From IMG/VR virus record IMGVR_UViG_3300037455_000543, positions 360,164-424,163 of that record: a stretch of 64,000 bases of DNA; one strand, written 5' to 3'. Positions 27,965 to 64,000 of this stretch are shown here, one piece after another. Each line of letters starts with the position of its first letter. Within the stretch, counting starts at the first letter, position 1. Position numbers and translations under genes: made by a program. The notes beneath the pieces are model-generated. The model searched no databases, was not told where the DNA came from, and worked only from the letters and a program-made list of their open reading frames with translations. The DNA comes from a virus (taxonomy: Duplodnaviria > Heunggongvirae > Uroviricota > Caudoviricetes).

Positions 27965-28300
27965 TTGAACCACATATTAAAGTCTGATTCCTCGGAACGA
28001 AGACCAACTCAATGGAATTGTCGGTAGAGGGTTAGCCATTTTATATCTGGGTTCAAGGTATACTTGAACGGTTTTAGGCCGTTAAATGAATGAACAGTGA
28101 CGTATAGATTAGCAACCTATACATATAGCCGCCATGGCTTGACATGATATAGCCGAAGTACAGGATGACCGCCTCGTAAGCATGTCAGTAAGTCCCAAGA
28201 GATTGACACCATGAAGCTTTATGCCAAAAGTGACCAATCGCCTAGTTCCTGCTAGGCTTAGATCTCTCCCAATCGCATTATCCAAAAGAATGATGTTTAT
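27965..28300 (+). ncRNA. candidate structured non-coding RNA
   Basis: Follows hairpin-promoter; no credible ORF, raised GC, several hairpins. Confidence 0.4.
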
Positions 28301-51256: not shown

Positions 51257-52151
51257 TGAAAAAACTTATATTTCCTGAACCTGAAAAATTTAAACAGATT
51301 TGTCAAGAAGTAATTCAGACAACGCCGAAAATTGATGAAGGTGGTGCATGGTATATTGATAATTATAAATTGAAAAACGGATTATTGATGGATATTGAGT
51401 TTTATCCACCAATGGCTTATAGTGTAGTAGATCGAGATTATAATGGCGTATTTTTTGTAAGTGTAGGACCGGAAGGTGCATGGTCTGATAAAAAAGTACT
51501 TAAACAAAAACACACAAATACATTTAAAAAGTTTAAATCGATTTTACAAAAGGTAATAAAAGAAAATGTGTGAATTCTGTACAAAAGTAGTTCATGAAAG
51601 AATAGATGAATTTGAAGAACCTAATTGTGTAATGATTAGGCGATGGTATAAGTCTGAATTTGTATATGATGAATTAGACCGAGACCGTCGTGATGAATTT
51701 TATCTATTTGAACGTAGACATGAACCCATGAGTGTTCAAAAATCACCAATATGGTATTTATCAACACCTGGTAAACTTTTATTTCCTGTCAGCAACTGTC
51801 CAAAATGCGGAAGGGACTTGGTATAATTATATGAGAAACGATATTGGATATGTAAGTTTTACGAATGATGATTTTGAATTGCAAGCATCATTTAGCAATG
51901 AAAGATCTGCACAGTTTTTTGCCGAATACTTGAAAACTAAATATGGCGAAAATAACCAGACTAAAACTGATTTTCGTGGAATGCCATTCATGAAATTCAA
52001 GATGGATGACAAGAATGAAATTGTATTATGTGGAAACCTAGTTGCCAGCCTTCAATGCATTTTGTCAGACTATATAAATGTATTGATGAATCCGATTCCT
52101 GACTATAAGTATAATCCGGATAATAATATTATTAAAACGATAACATGGTAG
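51256..52151 (+). CDS. three hypothetical genes
   Basis: Coupled ORFs; 51566 has CxxC...CPKCG. Confidence 0.55.
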
Positions 52152-52180
52152 ACTGATAAAAATAATTTTATTTTTAAGGG

Positions 52181-52350
52181 TTTACAAGACGAGAATAATT
52201 TACTATATTATACATCGTTAAATGATTGAGTGTCTGATAGACGATCAATAAAATGACATAGACACAGTGGTTGCAGGTTGAGGCTGGATATTCCTTCCAG
52301 ATCTGGGTCTATTTGAGGGTGACGAATCGGTATTCCTTCAAGACACTTTA
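52181..52350 (+). ncRNA. promoter and candidate small structured RNA
   Basis: TTTACA-17-TATATT, then AGTGTCT...AGACACT-closed non-coding segment. Confidence 0.35.
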
Positions 52351-52488
52351 AAAATAGGGTTTACAAAACAAAAGTAAATTACTATATTTAACAACACAAA
52401 ATGATTGACTTTCAAAGTCGATTAGCAGATTTGAAAAAAGCGAGAATTAAGAAAAAAGTTTTATATATAATATAAAACGAGGATTGAA

Positions 52489-52551
52489 ATGCAATTAGTA
52501 GTAACAACAAACGTAACACCAGTCAATAATCCAAAGGTAACTTTCGATTAG
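52489..52551 (+). CDS. leader peptide 1 MQLVVTTNVTPVNNPKVTFD
   Basis: GAGG SD; V5 T4 N3 P2; precedes terminator and Asn/Pro/Thr/Met/Val tRNAs. Confidence 0.85.
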   Translation: MQLVVTTNVTPVNNPKVTFD

Positions 52552-52577
52552 TTTGTTTCATTACTCTGATTCTAATC

Positions 52578-52612
52578 AATCCTGTATGAGACAAACTCAA
52601 ACAGGATTTTTT
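52578..52612 (+). terminator. attenuator terminator 1
   Basis: AATCCTGT..TGAG/CTCA..ACAGGATT + T-run; competitor 52550-52561 pairs with 52586-52597. Confidence 0.85.
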
Positions 52613-52626
52613 AATTCTCCTATTAT

Positions 52627-52699
52627 TGTTCCATAGCTCAGTTGGTAGAGCCCTCGACTGTTAATCGAGTTGTCCCTGGTTCGAGTCCAGGTGGAACAG
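52627..52699 (+). tRNA. tRNA-Asn(GTT)
   Basis: Cloverleaf; CTCGA-CTGTTAA-TCGAG; G73. Confidence 0.9.
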
Positions 52700-52980
52700 C
52701 TAAGGTATCGTATTATTAAATACCGGGAAGGTCGGGGCGGCGGGTAATCCGCAGCCAAAGCAGGGAATGGTAGATCCCCGATATCGTTTTGCAAAACAAA
52801 GCAAGATAGTTAACACCGACGTCAACGTGCCCTCATTGGAGTTGATCACCAGACTTGTGGCGCCAACCGGTTAATGTAGCTAAAATTCGAAAGATATAGC
52901 AAACAACGTTACTATTTTGTTAGAAACTAAAAAACGTTATGCTGGTAGTCCAGTGGTGGTGGAACCACCTAAAAAACTTG

Positions 52981-53055
52981 CGGGGTGTAGCTCAGTCTGG
53001 CTAGAGCATCTGCTTTGGGAGCAGAGGGTCGTAGGTTCGAATCCTGTCACCCCGA
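52981..53055 (+). tRNA. tRNA-Pro(TGG)
   Basis: Canonical cloverleaf. Confidence 0.95.
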
Positions 53056-53059
53056 CGAA

Positions 53060-53705
53060 CATGGTGAGGGGCGTGCTCTGTCGAAAGGCAACACGAGCAA
53101 GGAACTAAATTCTTTACCCAAGCGGAAAGTAATTTCCGCCGGAGACTGTGCTTAAGTCGATTAATAATCGATATGGCGTCGGTAAAGTTGTCAGGAATAA
53201 ATACGCCAAGAGATTGGGTACCTGACATTAGTACGTTCTGGCGGTGAGGCTCACCAGCCCTGTAGAATGGGGTTGCGACAAAACCGAGGCGTGAGCTAAG
53301 GCACGACGCGGAAATACAGGTGCTTATCTTCATCGAGATTAGCATTATGATCTGGGCAAGACCTATAGCGATAATCGTACAGTGCATGTCACGAATACAT
53401 CTACAACTTTCACCCTGTGGGCCGATAGCAATGTGACCCTCCAAGTTGCTTACTTACTTGTTCCGAAAGTAAAACTCTGGAAATATTCCGCCAGTTGTCC
53501 AAAAGGAAACATGAGTTCCAACGCGGTGTATAGAGAAATCTATGAAACTTAGGCGCAGGAGGTTCGTTACCTGGTTACGAAAGTACGGAAATAACGTAAC
53601 GCTTTGTAATTGAAGCGAATTATTTGTTAGCGAGTGTAAAATGCGATTTATAAGATCTATCGCTTACATGAGTTAATAAATTAAGTTTGACAAACACAAT
53701 TACAT
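53060..53705 (+). ncRNA. candidate large structured ncRNA (~630 nt)
   Basis: GC-richer, no credible ORF, many hairpins, between tRNAs. Confidence 0.55.
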
Positions 53706-53710
53706 TTTTT

Positions 53711-53783
53711 GCTGGTGTAGCTCAATTGGCAGAGCAGCTGATTTGTAATCAGCAGGTTGTAGGTTCGATTCCTATCACCAGCT
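53711..53783 (+). tRNA. tRNA-Thr(TGT)
   Basis: Canonical cloverleaf. Confidence 0.95.
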
Positions 53784-53918
53784 CTAATAAATACTGTTAG
53801 GCGTTATTTAGAAGCTGCAGACTCTTTATAGTGCTAAATCGGGTGTAACACGTAAGATCAGTTACAGTAAGAGCTGGTATAATCAAAGACCTCCAGTAAC
53901 AGTAAATTTTGAATTTGA

Positions 53919-53993
53919 TGCGGCCGAGTGAAACGGAAAATCATTCAAGGCTCATAACCTTCGAGATACTGGGTTCGACTCCCTGGACCGCGA
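53919..53993 (+). tRNA. tRNA-Met(CAT), initiator-like, atypical
   Basis: AAGG-CTCATAA-CCTT; weak 1:72 pair; some stem mismatches. Confidence 0.7.
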
Positions 53994-54204
53994 CTAAAAT
54001 ATACTTAAGCGCAAGTGCCTTTTAACGGACGCACCATTTTAAGGACTGAGAGCTGGGATAACGTTCGGGAATGCGTAAACGCCCTAGTTCGACAACGTAT
54101 AGAGCTAAACCTCTTGTATAGGGTAAAACCGATGTATACTACGTTTAGTGAGCGCTGAATTCACATAAGGGACGTGGTGTGAAGAGTATATCTTTTGAAT
54201 TTAT

Positions 54205-54276
54205 CGCGGGTTGATGCAGTGGTAGCAAGCAAGGCTCATAACCTTGAAGTCCCTGGTTCGAGTCCAGGACCCGCTA
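54205..54276 (+). tRNA. tRNA-fMet(CAT)
   Basis: CGCGGG start, C1xU72 mismatch, CTCATAA loop. Confidence 0.85.
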
Positions 54277-54364
54277 CGAATACGGTGAAAAGATACTAGG
54301 CGAGTATCATTTGATTAAGTTCAAATCGGGCTGTAGTCATTAGAGTCGCACCACTTAAAAATTA

Positions 54365-54423
54365 TGGCATAGGAAGTTCCTATTTTTAAAATTAAATGGG
54401 TTAATTAGTATTACTTCCCGCCA
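54365..54423 (+). ncRNA. GC-AHA-N5-UUCCUA motif copy
   Basis: TGGC ATA GGAAG TTCCTA...TA CTTCC C GCCA. Confidence 0.7.
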
Positions 54424-54514
54424 AACTTTTAAAAGCCAGTCTACGGGAAAATAAAGAGTAGACCGTTACCCAGAAGCCTGACCACGAGCTGGGACTGTAT
54501 CAAAGTGGTCATAA

Positions 54515-54590
54515 CTCTCCTTCGCCTAGCTGGTTTATGGCACCTGTCTTACAAACAGGAACAACCTTGGTTCAAATCCAAGAGGGGAGA
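54515..54590 (+). tRNA. tRNA-Val(TAC)
   Basis: CCTGT-CTTACAA-ACAGG; full cloverleaf. Confidence 0.85.
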
Positions 54591-54597
54591 TAAAAAT

Positions 54598-54710
54598 AGC
54601 ATAGGTAGTTCCTATTATCAAACGTGTAGCTCAGTGGTTAGAGCGTCGGGAGCAATCTCGGAGATCGTTGGTTCGAGTCCAATCATGTTTACCAGAAGTA
54701 CTACCCGCTA
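54598..54710 (+). ncRNA. UUCCUA motif enclosing an anticodon-less tRNA-like RNA (54620-54694)
   Basis: Acceptor, D and T arms canonical; anticodon loop replaced by GCAA tetraloop; ends ACCA. Confidence 0.75.
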
Positions 54711-54722
54711 TAAAGTTTACAT

Positions 54723-54837
54723 GCGGAAAGTAGCTCAATTGGTAGAGCAGAAGTATTATGTTACTACCCGCTACACGCAAAGGTTGTTCCTATTAATGGG
54801 GAACTTTGGGTTGTAGGTTCGAATCCTGCCTTTCCGC
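54723..54837 (+). tRNA. tRNA body (Pro/His-like) with permuted UUCCUA motif inserted in anticodon loop
   Basis: Acceptor, D and T arms intact; ~48-nt insert between GAAGT and ACTTT. Confidence 0.7.
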
Positions 54838-54843
54838 CGAAAC

Positions 54844-54930
54844 TGGCATATGAAGTTCCTATTTTTGGAAATCCTAGTATTATCTTCGGATAAGAAGGGA
54901 TAAGGTTCAAATCCTTTTTACTTCTCGCCA
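54844..54930 (+). ncRNA. UUCCUA motif copy enclosing a T-arm
   Basis: TGGC ATA TGAAG TTCCTA...AAGG-TTCAAAT-CCTT...TA CTTCT C GCCA. Confidence 0.7.
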
Positions 54931-54990
54931 AATTAAAATTTAACAAAAACGGAAAAACAAAAAACATAAATAAACAAAAGAGAAAATAAA

Positions 54991-55056
54991 ATGACTTACG
55001 TTATGAACACAAATAATACCAACCCTAATAATAACCCTGAGGTGCTACAGGATTAG
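54991..55056 (+). CDS. leader peptide 2 MTYVMNTNNTNPNNNPEVLQD
   Basis: N7 T3 P2; precedes terminator and Asn/Pro/Thr tRNAs. Confidence 0.85.
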   Translation: MTYVMNTNNTNPNNNPEVLQD

Positions 55057-55089
55057 TTTTGTTTCATAACTAGATGAATTTTTAAACTG

Positions 55090-55131
55090 AATCCTGTAAG
55101 ACCTTTGAGACTTACAGGATTTTTTATTTTT
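55090..55131 (+). terminator. attenuator terminator 2
   Basis: AATCCTGTAAG/CTTACAGGATT + T-run; competitor TACAGGATTAGTTT (55046-55059) pairs with 55084-55098. Confidence 0.9.
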
Positions 55132-55207
55132 GTTTACTAGCTTAACTGGCAGAGCGCTTCCCGTGGCCACGGGTGAGAGATATTCGGTTCGACTCCATTG
55201 TAAACAG
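55131..55207 (+). tRNA. tRNA-like RNA with Asn-type acceptor and no anticodon loop
   Basis: TGTTTAC/GTAAACA-G; arm CCCGT-GGCC-ACGGG; weak T-stem. Confidence 0.6.
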
Positions 55208-55215
55208 CTACTTAT

Positions 55216-55303
55216 TCCACGGTACTCTAACTGGTAAGAGGCCTGGCTGTTAACCAGGTGTATGGTGTAAAAACCTATGGAGGTTCGAATCCTTCCCGTG
55301 GAG
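55216..55303 (+). tRNA. tRNA-Asn(GTT) with long variable arm
   Basis: CCTGG-CTGTTAA-CCAGG; U1-A72, G73; ~20-nt variable arm. Confidence 0.85.
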
Positions 55304-55311
55304 CTAAATAT

Positions 55312-55395
55312 TGGTAGGTACCCGAGTGGTAGCAGGGGGGAGACTGTTAATCTCTTGACGAAAGTCCGCCGCAGGTTCGAATCCTGCCCTATCAG
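55312..55395 (+). tRNA. tRNA-Asn(GTT) with Tyr-like class II body
   Basis: GGAGA-CTGTTAA-TCTCT; GAC-GAAA-GTC variable arm; G73. Confidence 0.85.
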
Positions 55396-55404
55396 CTAAA
55401 ATAA

Positions 55405-55478
55405 CGGAGTGTAGCGCAGATGGTCAGCGTGTTTGCTTTGGAAGCATAAGGTCGTTGGTTCGAATCCAACCACTCCGA
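55405..55478 (+). tRNA. tRNA-Pro(TGG)
   Basis: Cloverleaf, TTTGGAA loop. Confidence 0.9.
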
Positions 55479-55486
55479 TAAATTAA

Positions 55487-55560
55487 CAGGGTGTAACTCA
55501 GTTGGTTAGAGAGCTCGCCTCGGATGCGAGGGGTCGCTGGTTCGAGTCCAGCCATCCTGA
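55487..55560 (+). tRNA. tRNA-Pro(CGG)
   Basis: CTCGC-CTCGGAT-GCGAG. Confidence 0.9.
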
Positions 55561-55653
55561 TAAAATATAAAGTGCGCAGGAGACATACTAGCCGTAGGGG
55601 CTAGAGAAGTTATATCCAGACGGAGGTCGGATAGATGGTGGAATTGCGATAAT

Positions 55654-55726
55654 CAGAATGTAGCTCAGCTGGCAGAGCGCACCGTTCGGGGCGGTGAGGT
55701 CGGAGGATCATAACCTCTCATTCTGA
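55654..55726 (+). tRNA. tRNA-Pro(CGG), atypical T-loop
   Basis: CACCG-TTCGGGG-CGGTG; T-loop ATCATAA. Confidence 0.8.
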
Positions 55727-55737
55727 CTAAAATTTTT

Positions 55738-55803
55738 GGCACAGGTCGTTCCTATGAGCTCGTAGAGCAGCAAATTGTTAATTTGAAGTATTTACGACCC
55801 GCC
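55738..55803 (+). ncRNA. UUCCUA motif enclosing D-arm-like hairpin + Asn anticodon stem-loop
   Basis: GGC ACA GGTCG TTCCTA...CAAA-TTGTTAA-TTTG...TA CGACC C GCC. Confidence 0.75.
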
Positions 55804-55806
55804 TTT

Positions 55807-55879
55807 GCTGGAGTAATTCAACTGGTAGAATAGCGGTTTAGTAATCCGCAAGTTGTAGGTTCGAGTCCTATCTCCAGCT
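55807..55879 (+). tRNA. tRNA-Thr(AGT)
   Basis: GCGGT-TTAGTAA-TCCGC; Thr-type acceptor. Confidence 0.85.
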
Positions 55880-55886
55880 CTATAAT

Positions 55887-55959
55887 GCCGGAATGGCGCA
55901 ATTGGTAGCGCAGCTCTTCCGTAATGAGATGGTTGGGTGTTCGAGTCACTCTTTCGGCG
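55887..55959 (+). tRNA. tRNA-Thr(CGT), atypical (C33)
   Basis: Loop TCCGTAA; weak anticodon stem. Confidence 0.7.
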
Positions 55960-56010
55960 TATCATTAGAAAGGATTGACAATAGTCAATTCTTTTTCTAT
56001 ATTATAAATC

Positions 56011-56613
56011 ATGATGCAATTAATAGTTATATCGAGTTTCGCTACAGCTGCAATAATTGCTGCATATTATTTCGGCATAGGTTTACTTTATAAGTATAGA
56101 GCAGGAGTATCAAAAATTCTAGCCTTTATAGTCTTTTTCTCGATTATAGGTTATAGAATGTATAGGGATTATCAAGATGAAAAGATTGTGGAATCAGCAT
56201 TGACTGAAATAACTACCGAAATAGATAATGCTGAAAAGAACATGATGTCAGATAAGGATTTTCATGAGTTCGTAGCAAAATCAATATCTCAGAAAGATGG
56301 CGTAAGTTTAAATATTATTCCGCAAATCGATACGGCAATCTTGAAAATTAATAAGATTTATCAGAATGTATTAAATGATCCGGATTTTAAGATTATGATA
56401 ACGAGCGCAAATGATTCTAAGTCACATTCAAAGAATTCGGCACATTATCGAGGACAAGCAGTAGATATAAGGATAAAGAATATTAACCATAGACATAAGA
56501 ATGAAATTATTGCAGCGATTAAGGAAATCTTAGGTGATAGGTTTTTGGTTCTCCATGAAGACAAGGGAAAACCAAATGAGCATTTGCATGTTCAGTTGAA
56601 GAACAATGGTTGA
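56011..56613 (+). CDS. membrane-anchored peptidase M15-family (endolysin-like)
   Basis: Two N-terminal TM helices; ITS...SAHYRGQAVDI...EHLHVQ zinc motifs. Confidence 0.8.
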   Translation: MMQLIVISSFATAAIIAAYYFGIGLLYKYRAGVSKILAFIVFFSIIGYRMYRDYQDEKIVESALTEITTEIDNAEKNMMSDKDFHEFVAKSISQKDGVSLNIIPQIDTAILKINKIYQNVLNDPDFKIMITSANDSKSHSKNSAHYRGQAVDIRIKNINHRHKNEIIAAIKEILGDRFLVLHEDKGKPNEHLHVQLKNNG

Positions 56614-56683
56614 TGGAAAGGGTTGACGAATGTCAGTCCTTTTTTTATATTATACGTATTAACAACAAATAACAGAGGAAAAA

Positions 56684-57586
56684 ATGAAAAAAATTATCAA
56701 CTTCTTGTTTAACTATCTCACTAAGCGTGCGCAGAAAGCAAAACCTAAAGAAAAAAATATCTATAATGCAGCAGGTAAGGTAATTTTAAATTTCCATAAT
56801 CTTATCAATCCAGCTATAACTACATATGAATATGATGAGGAAGGCCGTGAGATTTCAAATAAGTACATGTATAATGGTCATTTAAGTTCCATGACCAAGG
56901 GTGAAGTTATGGAAGACGGCCGGTTTAAAGAAACACGTATTACTTTCCCTGATAAGTCTAATAAACTTGAAGAAAAAGAAGTCGTTGTTTATTATACTTC
57001 TCCTGATAGGTCTACTCTTTATGATGAAAATTATCAGACTGTTCGAATGGAAGAAGTTGAAAATGATGAAAATGGTCGTGCTATTAAAAATGAAACGCGG
57101 TTGTATGATGACGGTAAGCTTCGTGCAACAGAAGTTCATCACTACCAATATGACGAACGTGGAAATCGAACTAAGATCGATGGTAAGACTACTGAAGCTG
57201 ATGACAGCATTAAATATATTTCTTCCTCCGAATATAATTATGATGAAAATAATTTAATGGTTCATAGAATTGAAACATTCAAAGCTATGACTAAAGACCA
57301 CATCTCTGATGATGAAACTCAATATCATTGTCAATATGATGAACAAGGTCGTGAAATTAGATGTTTAACTTATGAATGGGACCGTATTCGTGCAAGGTCT
57401 GACAGGTCTTGTCGTGATCATTTCTATTTCGGTGATGATGAAATTGAAGTATATAATCACATTACTTTGAATTTCATGATTACTACTTATGTTAAGAAAG
57501 TAACTAGGTCTGATGGTTCTAGGGTTGAAACTGAATGGTATTTGCCTAACTGGTTTGGTAAACTGCTGGTTTGGTGCTTACGTTAA
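56684..57586 (+). CDS. YD-repeat-like protein
   Basis: Repeated YEYDEEGR / YQYDERGN / YNYDENN / QYDEQGR. Confidence 0.7.
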   Translation: MKKIINFLFNYLTKRAQKAKPKEKNIYNAAGKVILNFHNLINPAITTYEYDEEGREISNKYMYNGHLSSMTKGEVMEDGRFKETRITFPDKSNKLEEKEVVVYYTSPDRSTLYDENYQTVRMEEVENDENGRAIKNETRLYDDGKLRATEVHHYQYDERGNRTKIDGKTTEADDSIKYISSSEYNYDENNLMVHRIETFKAMTKDHISDDETQYHCQYDEQGREIRCLTYEWDRIRARSDRSCRDHFYFGDDEIEVYNHITLNFMITTYVKKVTRSDGSRVETEWYLPNWFGKLLVWCLR

Positions 57587-57604
57587 TTTAAAAAGGAATA
57601 TAAT

Positions 57605-59738
57605 ATGACATACGAAGAATTAGTCAGTGATGAACGTTATGGTAAAATCTTGAAGCGTTGCCAAGAATTACCTATTGGAAAAGTTCTTGCATCTAATATC
57701 GATGATGCTTGGCCAGATTTGCCTGAAGAACTGCGCGAAGTACATGATGCTTATTACAATCCTAATGAACATTATTATGACTCTATTATCGATGTTATCG
57801 ATGACTATTTCTTGTATGTTGAAGAAGATATTACAGAAGAAAGTAAGAATAAAGTCCTCGATTATGCAATGAATCTTAAGGATATTAATCTTGTCTTCTT
57901 TGATGAATCTACGAAGGAATAAATTATGAATTATAATCTTTCAAGACTTCCGGGAACATACGAATTTGACCGGGAACAATTCGGCTTCAAGATAAATTCA
58001 AAGGTTTACAATGCACAAGAATACAGTTCTATTACGAACTGTTTTAGAGTTGTAGATATTAAGAAGAAAGACAAGTATATTGAAGCAGTGGATGTTATTG
58101 AAAATGGTAAAATGCATTCTGATAAGGATGACAAGTATTTTCATAAATGTGCAGACTATATGGTTAATTCGCCATTATATTATGATACTACGATTGGACT
58201 TTATAAGCCTACCCAGAATTATATTCATCTTATGACAAAGCTTGTTTTTAGAAAGATGATTATTGCATACCTTAAGAAAGAAGAAGATGTAGAAGTAGTT
58301 GAAAAATTGACAAATGAAAAACAGTTTAAAACTACATTTGTAATTAAGAATACTGAAGTTTTTAATGACCTTCATGAATATTTCTATGACTGGTATGTTA
58401 ATAAGACTTGTTCATATGAAGATTTTTTGAATAAAAATATAAGCAAGATTGGAAAAACCAATTATTTGATGCCTAGCACTGATAAGTATAAGATTGATCC
58501 TAATCATCCTGTAGAATTTTCAAATATAGCAGACGGACTTGATTGTGCAGATGTATATACTGCTTATCTTAATTTAATTAATCGTATTAAACAAATCTAT
58601 AATCAAATTGAATGGAAAGAACAAGAAAAGAATAAAAAGTTCAAAGCTGTAGTAATTTTAACTGTTTAAGGAAATAATTATGCCAAGATATGCGAAGAAA
58701 GGATGTACAAGAGCAGATATTATTGAAAAGATGCTTGACCAGCTTAAAGCAGATGGCGGGTATGATGAGGATATGGATGAAACCGACTCTGAACAAGTAA
58801 TTCAGCAGTGGCTTTATAATTGTGTTGCATATAGTGACATGAATCCTCAGATAGAAAAAGACTTGTCAAAGCTCGAATTTGATTGGGAAAATTCAGAAGA
58901 AGATTTTGAAAGTCAAAAATATGGAAAGCTTCCGGATGGAACATCGATTATCTGGTGTTTTGCAGGTGGAGATTGGGAGTTCCCTATTCATTTTGCCGTT
59001 TATATTGACGATAAGGACCATCTGAGAGCTTATATGCCGTTAGACGGTAATGTATATTGTCCAAAGTGTAAATGTGCTTACGGCTCATGCGAGGACGAAG
59101 AACATGAGCCTGAGGAAGAGCCTACGCCAGATTGGGAAAAGATGTATGCTGCGGCATGCAAACGAATTGAAACACGATAAGGTATAAAATATGAAATGTG
59201 CGATTTGTCAAGATCGATATGATACATTAAGTTGTCGTATTACAATGAGTAATGATAATCAAAGGCGTGATCCACAATATGATATGATTGTGTGCGAGAA
59301 CTGTTATTATAAGATTCTTGAAAAAATTATATTGATGGACCCAATAAATAAACGCTTAAATAAAGAAGAACACGTATGATGTCAACAATAAATACAGTTG
59401 TATTAATTTTAAGTATAATTGATATTCTGATTTTTTTATTTGCTCTTTTTAATTTCTTCTGTGCATTTTTCTGCAAAGGCGCAGATCGATTTGGGGTAAT
59501 TTTTCTCGGTATAGTAGCTACAATTTCCGCAATTGCTGGTTATGTAAGATTGCCAGACAAAGATGAACGTGTAGCATTATTTATGCAGATGAAGCCAAAA
59601 TGTGAGCATGAAACAGTTAAATGTTTAGAAGCAAAAGCAAGATGGTATAAAGACTCAATAGAATATAATATACGAGATACTACAGAAATTATAGATTCTA
59701 TTAAACAGGTTATAGATAAATATAAAACTGAGAAATAG
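57605..59738 (+). CDS. five hypothetical genes
   Basis: Coupled ORFs with SD. Confidence 0.6.
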
Positions 59739-59776
59739 GGTTTACAAAAGTAAAACAATTTACTATATTTAACATC

Positions 59777-59837
59777 GTTAAAGCAAAAAATGTTCCTATG
59801 ATGATATTTGCAAAATAGTTTTACATTTCGCTTTAAC
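59777..59837 (+). ncRNA. UUCCUA motif copy with TAT-TTGCAAA-ATA anticodon-like loop
   Basis: GTTAAAGC AAA AAATG TTCCTA...TA CATTT C GCTTTAAC directly after a promoter. Confidence 0.7.
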
Positions 59838-59842
59838 ACATC

Positions 59843-59953
59843 GGGGAAATAGCTCAGTGGTAGAGCAACGGTATTACGTTACGTAGTGATGCATATAACG
59901 TTCCTATTTCCATTTCAAGGCGTGTGTCGTAGGTTCGAGTCCTACTTTCCCCA
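59843..59953 (+). tRNA. tRNA body with permuted UUCCUA motif inserted in anticodon loop
   Basis: Perfect acceptor/D/T arms; insert TA CGTTA C GTA-GTGA-TGC ATA TAACG TTCCTA. Confidence 0.75.
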
Positions 59954-60067
59954 CTAAAAAATATTTTAAAAAGGGGTTGACAAACCAAAAACTTTTTACT
60001 ATATTTAACAACGTAAAATAACAAAAAACAGGAAAAATTTTTTATATATAATATAAAGGTAACGAAA

Positions 60068-60181
60068 ATGACTATGAACGTATTTGAACATGAATTTTTT
60101 GCAGCAGAACGTGCCGCAGCTGAATTCGCAGCTGCAGCGTTTGAAGCATTTTGTTCAGATACAGTGCATAGGATTAGGTAG
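60068..60181 (+). CDS. leader peptide 3 MTMNVFEHEFFAAERAAAEFAAAAFEAFCSDTVHRIR
   Basis: A10 F6 E5; precedes terminator and Glu/Ala/Phe tRNAs. Confidence 0.9.
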   Translation: MTMNVFEHEFFAAERAAAEFAAAAFEAFCSDTVHRIR

Positions 60182-60206
60182 TTAACCTAAATAAGTTTGA
60201 AAAAAC

Positions 60207-60241
60207 GGTTCCTGTGCACAAAGCGCAGGAACTTTTCTTTT
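60207..60241 (+). terminator. attenuator terminator 3
   Basis: GGTTCCTGTGC/GCGCAGGAACT + T-run; competitor GTGCATAGGA (60164-60173) pairs with 60210-60219. Confidence 0.9.
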
Positions 60242-60292
60242 ATACTTTGCTGGTAGTCCAGTAGTGGAGACACCACTTAAAAAACAACATTT

Positions 60293-60365
60293 GCTCCGTT
60301 CGGCCAGCGGTTCAAGCCAACCGACTTTCTATCGGTTAACCCCAGTTCGAATCTGGGACGGAGTA
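60293..60365 (+). tRNA. tRNA-Glu(TTC)
   Basis: ACCGA-CTTTCTA-TCGGT. Confidence 0.85.
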
Positions 60366-60375
60366 CTAAAAATTT

Positions 60376-60447
60376 GGGTCATTAGTATAATGGTAGTATC
60401 TCTGATTTGCACTCAGAGGGCATCGGTTCGAATCCGATATGTATCCA
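60376..60447 (+). tRNA. tRNA-Ala(TGC), bulged acceptor
   Basis: TCTGA-TTTGCAC-TCAGA; G3.U70. Confidence 0.8.
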
Positions 60448-60456
60448 CGAAAATTT

Positions 60457-60529
60457 GGGACTGTAGCTCAGTAGGTAGAGCGTTGGCCTGAAGAGCCAAG
60501 CGTCGTAGGTTCGATTCCTACCGGTCCCG
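60457..60529 (+). tRNA. tRNA-Phe(GAA)
   Basis: TTGGC-CTGAAGA-GCCAA. Confidence 0.9.
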
Positions 60530-60537
60530 CTAAATAT

Positions 60538-60611
60538 GGGCTTGTGGCGCAATTTGGTAGCGCAGTAGCTTTGCAAGCTAAAGGTTACGGGATCGTTCCC
60601 CGTCAGGTCCA
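60538..60611 (+). tRNA. tRNA-Ala(TGC)
   Basis: TAGC-TTTGCAA-GCTA; G3.U70. Confidence 0.85.
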
Positions 60612-60620
60612 CTACATTAT

Positions 60621-60693
60621 GCCTCGGCATCCAATCGTGGGAATGGACGGGACTGAAAATCCCAGAAATCCGGTTCGACTCCGGAACCTGGCA
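60621..60693 (+). tRNA. tRNA-Phe(GAA), atypical acceptor
   Basis: GGGA-CTGAAAA-TCCC; good T-arm, poor acceptor pairing. Confidence 0.65.
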
Positions 60694-60704
60694 CTAAACA
60701 TTAT

Positions 60705-60777
60705 GGGCTCGCATGATCCAAGGAGGCGACCGGTCCTTGCAAGACTAGTGTGGTGAGTTCGATTCTCATCGGGTCCA
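60705..60777 (+). tRNA. tRNA-Ala(TGC), atypical D-arm
   Basis: GGTC-CTTGCAA-GACT; G3.U70. Confidence 0.8.
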
Positions 60778-60789
60778 CTAAAATTTTTC

Positions 60790-60863
60790 GGCGCTGTCGA
60801 ATAACTGGTTCAGTTCACCGGCCTTTCAAGTCGGAAATTCGGGTTCGAGTCCCGACAGCGCTA
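60790..60863 (+). tRNA. tRNA-Glu(TTC)
   Basis: CCGGC-CTTTCAA-GTCGG. Confidence 0.9.
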
Positions 60864-60874
60864 CTAAAATATAT

Positions 60875-60947
60875 GGGTTCGCATGATCCAAGGAGGCGAG
60901 CTGGCTTTGCAAGCCGGCTGAGGTGGATTCGATTTCCACCGGATCCA
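60875..60947 (+). tRNA. tRNA-Ala(TGC), atypical D-arm
   Basis: CTGGC-TTTGCAA-GCCGG; G3.U70; D region identical to 60705 copy. Confidence 0.8.
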
Positions 60948-61114
60948 CGAAAGTCTACGGGTGGTGCCATTACTGTAGGCAAAGCATAGAAATATGCTGG
61001 TGATGAAGGAACAATACAACATAGGTTTAAATGCGCCTTGAGTATCAAGACCTAAAATTGGCTGAGAATCACGACGAAGTTTTGTGTCTTCGTAGGAATA
61101 AAAAACACATTTAT

Positions 61115-61188
61115 GGCTCTATCGTCTACGCTGGTTAGGACGCTAGGTTTTCAACCTGGTAAATTTGGTTCGACACCAAATAGGGCTA
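61115..61188 (+). tRNA. tRNA-Glu(TTC)
   Basis: CTAGG-TTTTCAA-CCTGG. Confidence 0.9.
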
Positions 61189-61193
61189 CTAAT

Positions 61194-61269
61194 GGGGGCT
61201 ATGGTTTAATTACCGCTCTTGGGCATAGTGATTTCCTACTTTTAATTGGTTCGAATCCAATTGCCTCCA
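61194..61269 (+). ncRNA. Ala-type acceptor+T-arm minihelix fused to permuted UUCCUA motif
   Basis: GGGGGC/GCCTCC-A with G3.U70; AATTGG-TTCGAAT-CCAATT; TA ATTAC C GC..GC ATA GTGAT TTCCTA. Confidence 0.7.
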
Positions 61270-61367
61270 CTAAAAATCTTGAGGGTCTAAAGTGAAGCCT
61301 GCTTAGACACGTATCAAAGAGATGATAAAAGACTGGTTGGATTCCAGTTGGATCCTTAAGAAATCAT

Positions 61368-61440
61368 GGTTCTATCGTCTAGTGGCCAAGGACAGTCGGT
61401 TCTCAGCCGCCTTACTTCAGTTCGAATCTGAATAGAACTA
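61368..61440 (+). tRNA. tRNA-Glu(CTC)
   Basis: CGG-TTCTCAG-CCG; Glu-type D arm. Confidence 0.8.
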
Positions 61441-61464
61441 CTATTCCATTAAAGGAAGTATTAT

Positions 61465-61794
61465 ATGATAACAGTGACACAAATTAACGATTTAAGAAAA
61501 GAGACTCAGGTTAGCATGCTTCTTTGTAAGCAAGCTCTTGAAGCAACAGGTGGTGATTTCGATGCTGCAAAAAAGTGGCTTCGTGAACAAGGTAAAGAAG
61601 TTGCTGGGGATTCATCTGCTTTTGGATTCACATTGATTAAAAATGGACAAGTTTCTGAACAGAGTACAGATAATAAGTTCACTTATTCCGACGGCCATAC
61701 AAGTATAGATATTCGCAATTATGGAGGTTCTACACCTTATACCATATGGGGCGGAATAACTGGACAGATAGTCCTTAATCCCGTAAAAGTATAA
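61465..61794 (+). CDS. protein with EF-Ts N-terminal (UBA-like) domain
   Basis: ITVTQINDLRKETQVSMLLCKQALEATGGDFDAAKKWLREQG. Confidence 0.8.
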   Translation: MITVTQINDLRKETQVSMLLCKQALEATGGDFDAAKKWLREQGKEVAGDSSAFGFTLIKNGQVSEQSTDNKFTYSDGHTSIDIRNYGGSTPYTIWGGITGQIVLNPVKV

Positions 61795-61869
61795 TATATA
61801 ATTAATTCTATTAAAAAGGGTTGACAAATGTCAACCTTTTTCTATATTATATAAAAAATATCATAAAGG

Positions 61870-62406
61870 ATGGTTAGACGCAGAATGATTAAACCATGTG
61901 ATTTTATACGTTGTTGTAAAAAGGTTTTTGGCGAGGCAAATTGTACATTTACAAATACGGTAGGAACGTCAGAACCATATTATATAACTTGTATTGTAGA
62001 GAATAAGGAAGTTGCACATTTAGCTGTATATAGTAATATTTTGTCATCTTTATGCCGTGTATACATAGATAATTGTGAAAATATTGTAAATTATAAAATT
62101 ACATTATATTATTATCTTTTAAAAGCAAATAAGGCATTAAAGTCAGTTCGACAAAAATTATTTAAAATTTATAGGACTATTGATTCTGAATTTCCAGATG
62201 AAAATTTAAATGATACTGTGAAATTAACAATTCAATATCTTACTAATGTTGAATTTGAGACAGAAGAAAAAGTTCAAAAATTATTTAAAGATTTATTTGA
62301 TAGCACATGTCACAACAATCCTAAAATTAGAGAAAAACTTATTTTAGATATGTTCGAATTTTATGCTAATATGGTAAAGATTAATAAGATTAAAGAAGTT
62401 GAATAA
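61870..62406 (+). CDS. hypothetical protein
   Basis: ORF behind hairpin-promoter at ~61815-61848. Confidence 0.6.
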   Translation: MVRRRMIKPCDFIRCCKKVFGEANCTFTNTVGTSEPYYITCIVENKEVAHLAVYSNILSSLCRVYIDNCENIVNYKITLYYYLLKANKALKSVRQKLFKIYRTIDSEFPDENLNDTVKLTIQYLTNVEFETEEKVQKLFKDLFDSTCHNNPKIREKLILDMFEFYANMVKINKIKEVE

Positions 62407-62407
62407 T

Positions 62408-62440
62408 AAAAAAACCAGGTCATTAACCTGGTTTTATTTT
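62408..62440. terminator. bidirectional intrinsic terminator
   Basis: AAAACCAGGT/ACCTGGTTTT between convergent genes. Confidence 0.8.
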
Positions 62441-62454
62441 TAAATTCAATTTAA

Positions 62455-62790
62455 TTAATAAAACTCATCTACTGTTTTATCTGCAAGTTTATTTTGAACA
62501 CAGGCATCAGTCGTGCACTTAGCAAACTCAATACCATCTTCGTATACAATATCTGCCGTTTTTATGCTAGTATTATATTTTATAGCAAGGTCATTAGGCA
62601 ATTCTAAATTTTTATAACCATTGATAAAGAGTAGACGAAAATCATTATAATCGCTATCATCCCAATATTTATAATTACGGTCCCAAAGTTCATCAAAAAT
62701 GTCTTGCGGCGTATATGTAAAACCTCTGGTTTCGTTTATAACTTGATATCCATATTTATTAAGTATTTTTTTGGCTTCATTTAAATTCAT
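62455..62790 (-). CDS. hypothetical late-expressed protein
   Basis: AAGGAG SD and TATAAATA (minus strand 62816-62823), the T4 late promoter consensus. Confidence 0.75.
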   Translation of the reverse strand: MNLNEAKKILNKYGYQVINETRGFTYTPQDIFDELWDRNYKYWDDSDYNDFRLLFINGYKNLELPNDLAIKYNTSIKTADIVYEDGIEFAKCTTDACVQNKLADKTVDEFY

Positions 62791-62938
62791 TTGGTGTTCT
62801 CCTTAAATTATATATTATTTATAAAAAATTAATTTAAGGGGTTTACAAAAAGAAAATAAATTACTATATTTAACATCGTTAAAACAAAAAACAAAAACAG
62901 GAAAAAATTTTTTATATATAATATAAAGGTTAAGAAAA

Positions 62939-63040
62939 ATGACTAAGTTTGTAGTTGACACTCATGATTGCAAGACTCGCCGCGACGGACGAGGTTTCGG
63001 CAAGCATGATAAGGATCGTTACCTACACAGGGTCATCTAG
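62939..63040 (+). CDS. leader peptide 4 MTKFVVDTHDCKTRRDGRGFGKHDKDRYLHRVI
   Basis: D5 R5 K4 G3 H3; precedes terminator and Asp/Arg/Lys/Gly tRNAs. Confidence 0.85.
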   Translation: MTKFVVDTHDCKTRRDGRGFGKHDKDRYLHRVI

Positions 63041-63065
63041 TATTAAACTGTATAAAGTTTTAAAG

Positions 63066-63103
63066 AATGATTCCTGTGTAAAAACGGGAATCATTTTTTA
63101 TTT
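63066..63103 (+). terminator. attenuator terminator 4
   Basis: AATGATTCCTGT/ACGGGAATCATT + T-run; competitor TACACAGGGTCAT (63024-63036) pairs with 63067-63080. Confidence 0.85.
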
Positions 63104-63177
63104 GGTCTCATTGCCTAGTGGTCTAAGGCGCTGGTCTGTCTAACCAGTTTTCGTGAGTTCGAATCTCACTGGGATCG
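63104..63177 (+). tRNA. tRNA-Asp(GTC)
   Basis: CTGGT-CTGTCTA-ACCAG; G73. Confidence 0.85.
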
Positions 63178-63188
63178 CTACAAACAAA

Positions 63189-63251
63189 ATAGCATAAGAA
63201 GTTCCTATTAAAAAATACAGACTGCAAATCCGTTAATATACTTCTCGCTAT
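63189..63251 (+). ncRNA. UUCCUA motif copy with Cys-type (CTGCAAA) anticodon loop
   Basis: ATAGC ATA AGAAG TTCCTA...ACAGA-CTGCAAA-TCCGT...TA CTTCT C GCTAT. Confidence 0.7.
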
Positions 63252-63255
63252 ACTT

Positions 63256-63331
63256 GGGGCCGTAGCTCAATTTTGGTTAGAGCACCGGACTGTCACTTCG
63301 GAGGTTGAGGGTTCAAGTCCCTTCGGTCCCG
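63256..63331 (+). tRNA. tRNA-Asp(GTC)
   Basis: CCGGA-CTGTCAC-TTCGG. Confidence 0.9.
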
Positions 63332-63339
63332 TTAAATAT

Positions 63340-63419
63340 ACACCAGTAGCCGAGCCTGACTACGAATCAGGTACACGTAACTGGAGCTGAAAATGCAGGT
63401 TCGAACCCTGTCTGGTGTA
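63340..63419 (+). tRNA. tRNA-Arg(ACG) with rearranged D region
   Basis: Perfect acceptor, CCTGA-CTACGAA-TCAGG and T-arm; only 8 nt before anticodon arm, 23 nt after. Confidence 0.7.
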
Positions 63420-63430
63420 CTAAAAAATAT

Positions 63431-63485
63431 GCGGTGGGAGTTTTACTAATTTCTCGTGTCCGACACCGGGAAGATAAAAAATTAG
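63431..63485 (+). ncRNA. repeated pseudoknot element, copy 1
   Basis: GCGGTG GGAG TTTT ACTAAT TTCTC GTGTCCGACACCGGG..ATAAAAA ATTAG. Confidence 0.6.
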
Positions 63486-63568
63486 ATTCGCCAGCTCAGC
63501 GAATTCAAACAAATGAGTTTCTGGAGTTTGTAGGTAGCTTCTGTCCAAAACCAAAAACCTTCGCCTAT

Positions 63569-63643
63569 GCCTCACTAACTCAATTTGGTTAGAGTACCTG
63601 CCTCTTAAGCAGGGAGTTCAAGGTTCAAGTCCTTGGTGGGGTA
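63569..63643 (+). tRNA. tRNA-Lys(CTT)
   Basis: CCTGC-CTCTTAA-GCAGG. Confidence 0.9.
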
Positions 63644-63647
63644 CTAT

Positions 63648-63704
63648 GCGGTGAGAGTTTTGCTGGCTTCTCGTGTCCGACACCGGGCAGATAAAAAACC
63701 AGCA
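63648..63704 (+). ncRNA. repeated pseudoknot element, copy 2
   Basis: Same core with covarying TGCTGG/CCAGCA. Confidence 0.6.
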
Positions 63705-63709
63705 TTTAT

Positions 63710-63783
63710 GCGGTAGTAGCTCAACTGGTAGAGCACCGGATTGCCATTTCGGAGGTTTGTGGGTTCGAGACCCATCTACCGCT
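63710..63783 (+). tRNA. tRNA-Gly(GCC)
   Basis: CCGGA-TTGCCAT-TTCGG; U73. Confidence 0.9.
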
Positions 63784-63792
63784 TTAAAATTT

Positions 63793-63865
63793 GGATCTAT
63801 ATGTCAATGGTTCAGACGAGGAAACTCTTAATTTCCGGATTCCCGTTCGACTCGGGATAGGTCCA
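63793..63865 (+). tRNA. tRNA-Lys(CTT)
   Basis: GGAAA-CTCTTAA-TTTCC. Confidence 0.85.
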
Positions 63866-63876
63866 CTAAAATATAA

Positions 63877-63947
63877 GCACCTATGGTGTACAAGTAGCAA
63901 GTCGCATTGCCTGTGCGAAGGAGACGGGGCAGTACCGTCTAGGTGCT
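63877..63947 (+). tRNA. tRNA-Gly(GCC), atypical T-loop
   Basis: TCGCA-TTGCCTG-TGCGA; T-loop GGCAGTA; U73. Confidence 0.75.
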
Positions 63948-63956
63948 CTAAAAATT

Positions 63957-64000
63957 GCCTTATTGTTGTATTGGCTTAGCAAGCGATCCTTCCAAGTTCG
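63957..64000 (+). tRNA. tRNA-Gly(TCC), cut by window end
   Basis: CGATC-CTTCCAA-GTTCG. Confidence 0.6.

Follow-up and report, generated by a model that had tools for sequence, protein, structure and literature searches.

A predicted leader-peptide attenuator in front of a phage tRNA operon that reads the leader's own codons

Several leader peptides of enterobacteria are multivalent, for example thrL (Thr, Ile) and ilvL (Ile, Val, Leu), and trpL, hisL and pheL belong to the same class. The attenuator of the Escherichia coli pheST operon, with its pheM leader, controls phenylalanyl-tRNA synthetase. T-box elements work by direct binding of uncharged transfer RNA (tRNA), carry a single specifier codon together with a conserved T-box sequence, and do not need translation. 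The tRNA genes themselves are usually described as promoter-controlled, via growth rate and the stringent response, and those carried by phages are usually viewed as fixed codon-usage supplements or as spares against tRNA-cleaving defences. Described cases include the pheL leader attenuator (PMC3082878) and the proline-codon leaders mgtL and mgtP of the Salmonella mgtA and mgtCBR operons, which are tandem attenuators (PMC3641672). The subject of this paper is attenuator 1, a locus where a short open reading frame (ORF) and an intrinsic terminator stand in front of a cluster of tRNA genes. It lies in the final 64 kb (360164-424163) of a 424,163-bp IMG/VR virus record, IMGVR_UViG_3300037455_000543; this whole stretch of 64,000 nucleotides (nt) is called the window, and coordinates refer to it unless they are given as genome positions.

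We consider it probable, at roughly 0.85, that attenuator 1 would act as a ribosome-mediated leader-peptide transcription attenuator of a phage tRNA operon, sensing how well the codons served by the tRNAs of that operon can be decoded. The evidence consists of sequence elements, codon statistics, in silico folds and the co-variation of leaders with tRNA content, and the steps of the mechanism are drawn from the sequence and its folding. From these we infer leader translation, ribosome stalling, the direction of the switch and a benefit to the phage. The mechanism, leader-peptide attenuation, is a known one and its target, tRNA genes, is new; full-text literature searches, with subscription journals mostly outside them, returned no paper on leader-peptide control of tRNA operons or genes. 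The elements of attenuator 1 are as follows.

52360-52388, + strand: promoter (TTTACA, 17-nt spacer, TATATT), matching 10 of 12 sigma-70 consensus positions
52460-52476, + strand: AT-rich box TTTATATATAATATAAA, preceding GAGGA
52479-52483, + strand: Shine-Dalgarno-like GAGGA, 5 nt upstream of the ATG
52489-52551, + strand: leader ORF 1, with ATG, 20 sense codons and a TAG stop
52493-52512, + strand: region 1, 5' strand of the protector helix, covering codons 2-8 including GTA GTA ACA ACA AAC; its partner is 52551-52571
52550-52561, + strand: region 2, AGTTTGTTTCAT, starting on the A of the TAG stop and able to pair with region 1 or region 3
52586-52597, + strand: region 3, ATGAGACAAACT, inner stem and apical loop of the terminator and 3' strand of the antiterminator
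52578-52612, + strand: intrinsic terminator, with a hairpin (52578-52608) of an 8-bp outer and a 4-bp inner stem, followed by T6

The cluster behind the terminator was delineated with ARAGORN and Rfam.

52627-52700, + strand: tRNA-Asn (GTT), reading leader codons AAC and AAT (ARAGORN, Rfam)
52981-53056, + strand: tRNA-Pro (TGG), reading CCA (ARAGORN, Rfam)
53711-53784, + strand: tRNA-Thr (TGT), reading ACA (ARAGORN, Rfam)
53919-53994, + strand: atypical CAT tRNA, called by ARAGORN at a lowered threshold only and below the Rfam listing
54205-54277, + strand: CAT tRNA, the more initiator-like of the two (ARAGORN)
54515-54590, + strand: tRNA-Val (TAC), reading GTA (ARAGORN)
54620-54694, + strand: tRNA-like gene called as Leu CAA, of uncertain identity, with a G at position 33 and a weak anticodon stem
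54724-54837, + strand: tRNA-like gene of uncertain identity, with a 41-nt insert in the anticodon loop

The first line of evidence is the agreement between these two lists. The leader contains GTA four times, ACA three times, CCA twice, AAC once and AAT twice. These are the counts that an earlier reading of the same DNA, made from the letters alone (the sequence-only reading), had reported, and the tRNA calls bear out its statement that the anticodons TAC, TGT, TGG and GTT downstream are cognate to those codons. Altogether 12 of the 19 post-start codons are cognate to the cluster, with 3.4 expected (binomial P 1.5e-5), and only 42 of 100,000 random coding windows of the genome equal this match (empirical P 4e-4). 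The match is confined to the frame of the ORF, as the two other frames give 2 of 18 and 4 of 18. That the agreement extends to individual codons, as had also been proposed, is upheld by a synonymous test restricted to amino acids served by the cluster, in which the amino acids were kept fixed and the codons redrawn from the phage's own usage: exact Watson-Crick cognates make up 10 of 15 codons against 4.8 expected (P 0.0055), and with wobble 12 of 15 are cognate against 8.3 expected (P 0.026).

The second line of evidence is that the arrangement is repeated. The genome holds seven units of leader, terminator and tRNA cluster, four of them in the window, with ORFs starting at 52489, 54991, 60068 and 62939. 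The six units other than attenuator 1 are listed here.

54991-55131, + strand: attenuator 2, with leader ORF 54991-55056 rich in Asn, Thr and Pro and with one Tyr codon; antiterminator 55046-55059 with 55084-55098, terminator 55090-55131
60068-60241, + strand: attenuator 3, with leader ORF 60068-60181 rich in Glu, Ala and Phe, and terminator 60207-60241
62939-63103, + strand: attenuator 4, with leader ORF 62939-63040 rich in Asp, Lys (all AAG), Gly, His and Arg, and terminator 63069-63103
genome 10787-10873: leader ORF of a unit outside the window
genome 12774-12866: leader ORF of a unit outside the window
genome 325929-325873, minus strand: leader ORF of a unit outside the window

Attenuator 3 is located before Glu, Ala and Phe tRNAs, and attenuator 4 before Asp, Lys CTT and Gly tRNAs, in a cluster that extends past the end of the genome to include Gly TCC and His GTG. 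Each of the seven leaders is individually enriched for the codons of its own cluster when compared with random coding windows, and the true pairing of leaders with clusters is the unique maximum among 5040 permutations (7x7 table; exact and wobble decoding). In frame, 58% of the leader triplets match, as against 12-16% out of frame. Pooling the seven leaders for synonymous choice gives 101 cognate codons where 82.7 are expected, and 67 exact cognates where 44.2 are expected (P<1e-5). The choice can be followed codon by codon across the seven leaders: AGY as a Ser codon is confined to leaders with Ser GCT behind them, and TCN to those with Ser GGA/TGA/CGA; for Lys, CTT goes with AAG and TTT with AAA; for Gln, CTG goes with CAG and TTG with CAA; and ATA and AGA occur before Ile TAT and Arg TCT.

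Moreover, the leaders change with their clusters in related phages. The extended promoter motif described below picks out 65 loci, in related viral contigs whose length reaches 415 kb. In the Trp/Leu/Ser type of leader, relatives have two additional Cys codons where the cluster has Cys GCA, and two additional CAG plus two additional Cys codons where it has both Gln CTG and Cys GCA. In the Asp/Lys/Gly leader the number of Ala codons is eight when two Ala TGC tRNAs stand first in the cluster, and zero in the phage studied here; a Tyr codon is present in the Asn/Pro/Thr leader solely when the cluster includes Tyr GTA; and the Tyr-type leader is without Gln and Ile codons, with Cys reduced from three to one, in relatives whose cluster has lost those tRNAs. 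Compensatory differences between the variants of relatives are also seen in the terminator arms and their pairing partners at the leader ends, with the pair GUGGGAAC/GUUCCCAC in one variant and GUAGGGAC/GUUCCUAC in another.

The terminators of this system escape a simple scan, because a loop limit of 3-8 nt misses both those of attenuators 1 and 2, and folding was used instead. For attenuator 1, folding gives a hairpin of -13.8 kcal/mol, which together with its T6 run lies 14 nt upstream of tRNA-Asn. In six of the seven leaders, the stop-proximal segment is complementary to the 5' half of the terminator (P 0.0003-0.006 each; Fisher-combined 6e-12); for leader 7 this complementarity is not significant (P 0.50), and by eye it has a post-stop motif like that of leader 1, set against the loop and 3' arm of its own terminator. 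Of length-matched random genome segments, 99.4% pair with the 5' half and loop of the leader 1 terminator less strongly than does the stop-proximal segment of leader 1. As the antiterminator of leaders 1 and 7 targets the terminator loop, the probability that the 5' arm is paired is too crude a measure for them, and explicit state energies were used.

In these models, RNA position i corresponds to window position 52488+i, so that the terminator hairpin is nt 90-120, and the 125-nt leader has a folding z-score of -5.6. The helix of regions 2 and 3 (2:3 helix; nt 62-73 with 98-109), first pointed out in the sequence-only reading, is present, with 12 consecutive pairs including one G-U and a duplex energy of -12.8 kcal/mol. 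In the nascent minimum-energy fold it gains two further pairs into the terminator 5' arm. When both states are folded, the antiterminator is competitive: it is the minimum-energy fold of the RNA at 109-112 nt (-18.9 kcal/mol), just before synthesis of the 3' arm. The 2:3 helix is expected to exclude the outer terminator stem on steric grounds, because only 3 nt would be left to bridge the 12-bp helix to the outer 3' arm. A ribosome with the stop codon in its A site masks nt 46-73 in the model, so that region 2 is covered and the terminator alone can form. A ribosome stalled on codons 4-10 masks region 1, and the antiterminator state (-18.7 kcal/mol) then stands against the terminator at -20.6 kcal/mol. 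With the two energies so close under this masking, the outcome turns on the order of synthesis, and findpath puts the barrier from antiterminator to terminator at 16.6 kcal/mol.

Regarding a leader that is not translated, the sequence-only reading had expected failure of initiation to antiterminate as well, and here the modelling points the other way. A protector helix (nt 5-24, that is codons 2-8, with nt 63-83; 52493-52512 with 52551-52571) is complete by nt 85 and is part of the minimum-energy fold of the nascent RNA at 85-105 nt as well as of the complete leader. In the untranslated full-length RNA, protector plus terminator has -30.9 kcal/mol as against -18.7 for the antiterminator state, and the barrier from protector to antiterminator is 11.4 kcal/mol. 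Because the protector helix is transcribed first and pairs region 1 with region 2, the model predicts that an untranslated leader terminates, as in trp-like superattenuation. At 109-112 nt the antiterminator lies 2.3 kcal/mol below the protector, and fast refolding would favour antitermination without translation.

The conservation of leader 1 was followed in eight homologous sequences (six of them distinct, 95% identical) from viral and metagenome contigs. In the six distinct homologues no pair is lost from the protector core, the 2:3 helix or the terminator: the protector core (nt 18-24 with 63-69) in six of six, with one C-G to U-G change, and the terminator with all 12 pairs invariant. Region 3 is nearly invariant although it lies in the terminator loop, its one A to G change retaining a G-U pair. 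Region 2 was in the search pattern for the metagenome matches and is conserved there by construction, which does not apply to region 3 and the terminator. Variation is limited to codons 3-5 and 8-10 and to spacer nt 77-89. Since the sequences are too similar and hold no double compensatory changes, this alignment neither proves nor contradicts the helices.

Taken as a sequence of events, the proposed mechanism would run as follows. Transcription would start at the promoter at 52360-52388, and a ribosome would load at GAGGA and translate the 20-codon leader behind the moving RNA polymerase. With charged Val(UAC), Thr(UGU), Asn(GUU) and Pro(UGG) tRNAs plentiful, it would reach TAG and cover region 2, the hairpin at 52578-52608 would form and transcription would end in the T run. 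Should one of these tRNAs be short, the ribosome would stall on codons 4-11 (GTA GTA ACA ACA AAC GTA ACA CCA) and occupy region 1; region 2 would then pair with region 3, no hairpin would form, and the polymerase would read through into the Asn, Pro, Thr, CAT, CAT and Val genes. Without any translation, region 1 would pair with region 2 and the terminator would form. Because the output would replenish the very molecules that are sensed, the circuit would be a negative feedback loop.

Transcripts that read through would next reach attenuator 2, where Asn, Thr, Pro and Tyr codons would be put to the test before the second tRNA block. A promoter scan found no promoter between cluster 1 and leader 2, which places attenuators 1 and 2 in series, and for this reason the second block would need read-through of both. 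Six related contigs show the same succession of leader 1, Asn-Pro-Thr-CAT-(CAT)-Val, leader 2 and Asn-Asn-Pro-Pro-(Pro)-Thr.

Several points speak against the reading of attenuator 1 as a sensor of its own tRNAs. Seven of the 19 leader codons (CAA, TTA, GTC, AAG, ACT, TTC, GAT) have no strict cognate in the cluster. The cognate codons 13-17 lie outside region 1, and modelled stalling there favours the terminator. Region 3 is located in the loop and inner stem of the terminator, not in its 5' arm, and that the 2:3 helix and the outer stem exclude each other is a conclusion from nearest-neighbour folding, with pseudoknots disallowed, and from the steric argument. Double compensatory changes number zero in the 2:3, protector-core and terminator helices of the six distinct homologues. 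Stalling also reports amino-acid starvation, which extra tRNA does not relieve. Lastly, in three related contigs (L054, L067 and L068) the same tRNA block follows 29 nt after the promoter without a leader; as the first block can stand behind its promoter in this way, the gate is optional and dispensable.

Among other explanations, the one that survives best, though we regard it as unlikely, keeps the gate and changes its signal: the leader would gate the terminator while reporting general translation capacity, such as ribosome or initiation availability or coupling to the polymerase, and its codon content would be a by-product. A layout of protector, antiterminator and terminator does react to any change in ribosome progress, and the seven non-cognate codons of leader 1 fit a signal of this kind. 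What it leaves unexplained is the match of seven leaders to their own clusters as the unique best of 5040 arrangements, the synonymous choice that tracks anticodons, and the leader content that tracks the gain and loss of tRNAs in relatives.

Sensing might also proceed without translation, in a T-box-like manner, with leader triplets pairing to the anticodons of uncharged tRNAs and so stabilising the antiterminator. The regulated products are tRNAs and the leader holds their cognate triplets, as such a scheme would have it; even so, it is very improbable. Neither RF00230 nor any other cis-regulatory Rfam family matches 52000-64000 or the other clusters, at the gathering threshold or at E<=1. 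The triplets lie in one frame between an ATG and a stop, behind a Shine-Dalgarno-like site, with the contrast of 58% in frame and 12-16% out of it, and each leader has many specifier triplets where a T-box has one.

Equally hard to credit is the proposal that the hairpin is a constitutive partial terminator or a site of processing, and that the short ORF arose by chance in AT-rich DNA. Open frames of such length occur commonly, and related phages carry the same tRNA block behind a promoter without a leader; the codon enrichment, its frame specificity, the permutation tests, the conservation of ORF and helices while the spacer varies, and the fold z-score of -5.6 all count against chance. That the short ORFs encode trans-acting peptides, for instance membrane peptides, with a coincidental resemblance to tRNA sets, would suit the Leu/Ser-rich leader at genome 10787-10873, which resembles a hydrophobic helix, and is otherwise scarcely tenable, as the seven peptides have nothing in common beyond each matching its own cluster, selection among synonymous codons is inexplicable at the peptide level, and relatives swap residues in step with tRNA content.

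The genome-wide picture, which favours the reading of attenuator 1 as a ribosome-mediated attenuator, is one of the standard genetic code with initiation led by Shine-Dalgarno sites: SD-like 4-mers precede 54% of the long ORFs of the phage as compared with 11% of random 17-mers. The AT-rich box in front of GAGGA occurs in exact form upstream of leaders 1, 3 and 4, with 6 matches where 0.38 are expected. The promoter of attenuator 1 is embedded in a phage-specific motif, GGGTTTACAAA-N11-TTACTATATT, of which the 424-kb genome has 13 copies, nine of the 13 at tRNA units. A promoter of the Bacteroidetes type (-33/-7) was considered for this site and dropped, the site being of the sigma-70 type at 10 of 12 positions with a 17-nt spacer; a host with Bacteroidetes-type promoters is likewise disfavoured because the phage uses SD-like sites.

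As for the stop codons, five of the seven leaders end in TAG (52549-52551, 55054-55056, 60179-60181 and 63038-63040; genome 10871-10873), and in leaders 1 and 2 the TAG sits inside GATTAG, a conserved motif overlapping with the beginning of region 2. In some relatives TAA replaces TAG as the leader stop. Recoding of TAG was rejected as an explanation of this preference, given that TAG terminates 40 of the 343 long ORFs of the phage (TAA 258, TGA 45); in addition, ARAGORN at its default threshold found no tRNA with a CTA anticodon in the phage genome, which also counts against recoding. A possible reason for the TAG stops is slow release dependent on release factor 1, which would hold the ribosome on region 2.

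The two CAT tRNAs of cluster 1 deserve a separate comment. In bacterial initiator tRNAs, positions 1 and 72 are unpaired and three consecutive G-C pairs stand at the bottom of the anticodon stem. The description of both genes as initiator-type tRNA-Met holds in part: the tRNA at 54205-54277 does have C1/U72 unpaired, with only two such G-C pairs, and the one at 53919-53994 pairs U1 with G72 and has two G-C pairs as well as a C/C mismatch in its anticodon stem, so that the unpaired end occurs in the former only and neither has three G-C pairs. In some homologues codon 4, 5 or 9 of leader 1 is ATA or ATG instead of GTA. One may speculate that the CAT tRNAs are sensed as elongators, one of them perhaps an AUA reader, which would fit these variants.

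The surroundings of attenuator 1 hold further observations. The spacers of cluster 1 (52701-52980, 53057-53710, 53785-53918, 53995-54204 and 54278-54514) are conserved at 75-97% in related contigs. The longest, between tRNA-Pro and tRNA-Thr (53057-53710, 654 nt), has a folding z-score of -4.3; it gave no Rfam match, and its first ~350 nt had no match among the related loci fetched. We take the spacers of cluster 1 to be structured RNAs that would be co-transcribed with the tRNAs, and not junk. In some relatives (L031:5700-6100 and L013) the tRNA-Asn behind attenuator 1 is split just after its GTT anticodon by a long insert; the copy in the phage studied here is intact.

Two kinds of small repeat recur near the tRNA genes. 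One is a hairpin, GCTGGTAGTCCAGTGGTGG...CCACC followed by an A run, at 52940-52975 and 60248-60290, where it sits before tRNA-Pro of cluster 1 and before the first tRNA of cluster 3. The other is a motif of ~17 nt, GCATAnGAAGTTCCTAT, with the core GTTCCTAT, which flanks or interrupts tRNA-like genes; it is found at 54367-54385, 54599-54617, 54845-54863 and 63190-63208, and also within the anticodon-loop inserts, 27-41 nt long, of the tRNAs at 54724-54837 and 59843-59953. It may be a processing or mini-intron signal.

Directly upstream of the attenuator 1 promoter, in 52181-52357, there is a second promoter copy, TTTACA-17-TATATT, at 52181-52209. The RNA of ~150 nt behind it has neither an ORF nor a tRNA call and is 78-97% identical in relatives. 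Behind another promoter copy, at genome 12312-12480 (outside the window; locus L009), is an RNA with three T-arm-like hairpins of the GGTTCGAGTCC type, closed by one acceptor-like stem, which lies just upstream of the promoter of the Tyr/Cys/Ser attenuator. An ORF of 109 amino acids at 61465-61794, which begins 24 nt downstream of the final tRNA in cluster 3, matches the N-terminal EF-Tu-binding domain of EF-Ts (PF25025, 29.6 bits, E 7e-7, below the curated cut-off of 33.2), and may be co-transcribed under attenuator 3.

The genome as a whole has 127-bp direct terminal repeats, 35% G+C, and 50 tRNA genes plus a transfer-messenger RNA gene (ARAGORN default). A cow-rumen-2 RNA lies inside the phage genome at 28096-28200 of the window (Rfam RF02947, 108.5 bits), and because of this RNA, together with the related contigs in viral and metagenome collections, we refer to a rumen phage. 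A blastn search of 52150-55150 against a cultured-phage collection gave tRNA matches only and no leader homologue. The pattern GATTAGTTT(N)GTTTCAT returned mostly chance matches in viral contigs, and the unit itself only in relatives that were already known.

What the seven units might do together is a more tentative matter. They possibly form a multiplexed, isoacceptor-resolved array of sensors through which the phage would detect the host tRNAs that are scarce or destroyed, for example by anticodon nucleases or further defences that deplete tRNAs, and replace these alone, with attenuators 1 and 2 as an AND gate for reserve Asn, Pro, Thr and Tyr tRNAs; we hold this wider proposal to be less probable than not. 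If it were true, the array would be a demand-driven system of counter-defence and codon supply without a described cellular equivalent. The attenuator itself, if the reading of it given here is correct, would exert direct, isoacceptor-resolved feedback on the tRNA pool and give a compact natural sensor for the supply of single tRNAs. It would also explain why the tRNA arrays of large phages are split into blocks, and would offer a testable link between phage tRNA sets and host immunity that targets tRNAs.

We close with the comparison to the systems named at the outset. With thrL, ilvL, trpL, hisL and pheL, the phage units share a short leader with regulatory codons, here predicted to be translated, and an intrinsic terminator. 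As in the thrL/ilvL/trpL class, the ribosome would set which of two exclusive structures forms, and a protector (1:2) helix predicts termination when the leader is untranslated, in this case in silico; as in thrL and ilvL, several amino acids would be sensed by one leader. The four-region logic of attenuator 1 is that of trp except that region 3 falls in the loop and inner stem of the terminator. Unlike this class, the phage units would regulate tRNA genes rather than biosynthetic enzymes, so that the output is the sensed molecule; selection in their leaders reaches single synonymous codons and isoacceptors; and they are carried by a phage, seven to a genome, two of them in series.

Together with the thr and ilv leaders, the nearest in logic is pheST, where leader-peptide attenuation of a component of the translation apparatus likewise responds to charged-tRNA supply, but there the gene is cellular, the target a synthetase and the amino acid a single one, whereas the phage units head tRNA genes. 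T-box elements (RF00230) resemble the phage units in reading tRNA status by codon-anticodon recognition and in switching between terminator and antiterminator, and differ in that the triplets of the phage leaders form a frame predicted to be translated, and that Rfam gives no match. Finally, mgtL and mgtP are similar in that the speed of translation at particular codons of short ORFs selects the leader structure and that more than one ORF occurs in tandem. Their targets are a transporter and a virulence gene, with no relation between codon and product, and the two ORFs share a single leader, whereas each ORF of the phage heads its own block of tRNA genes.

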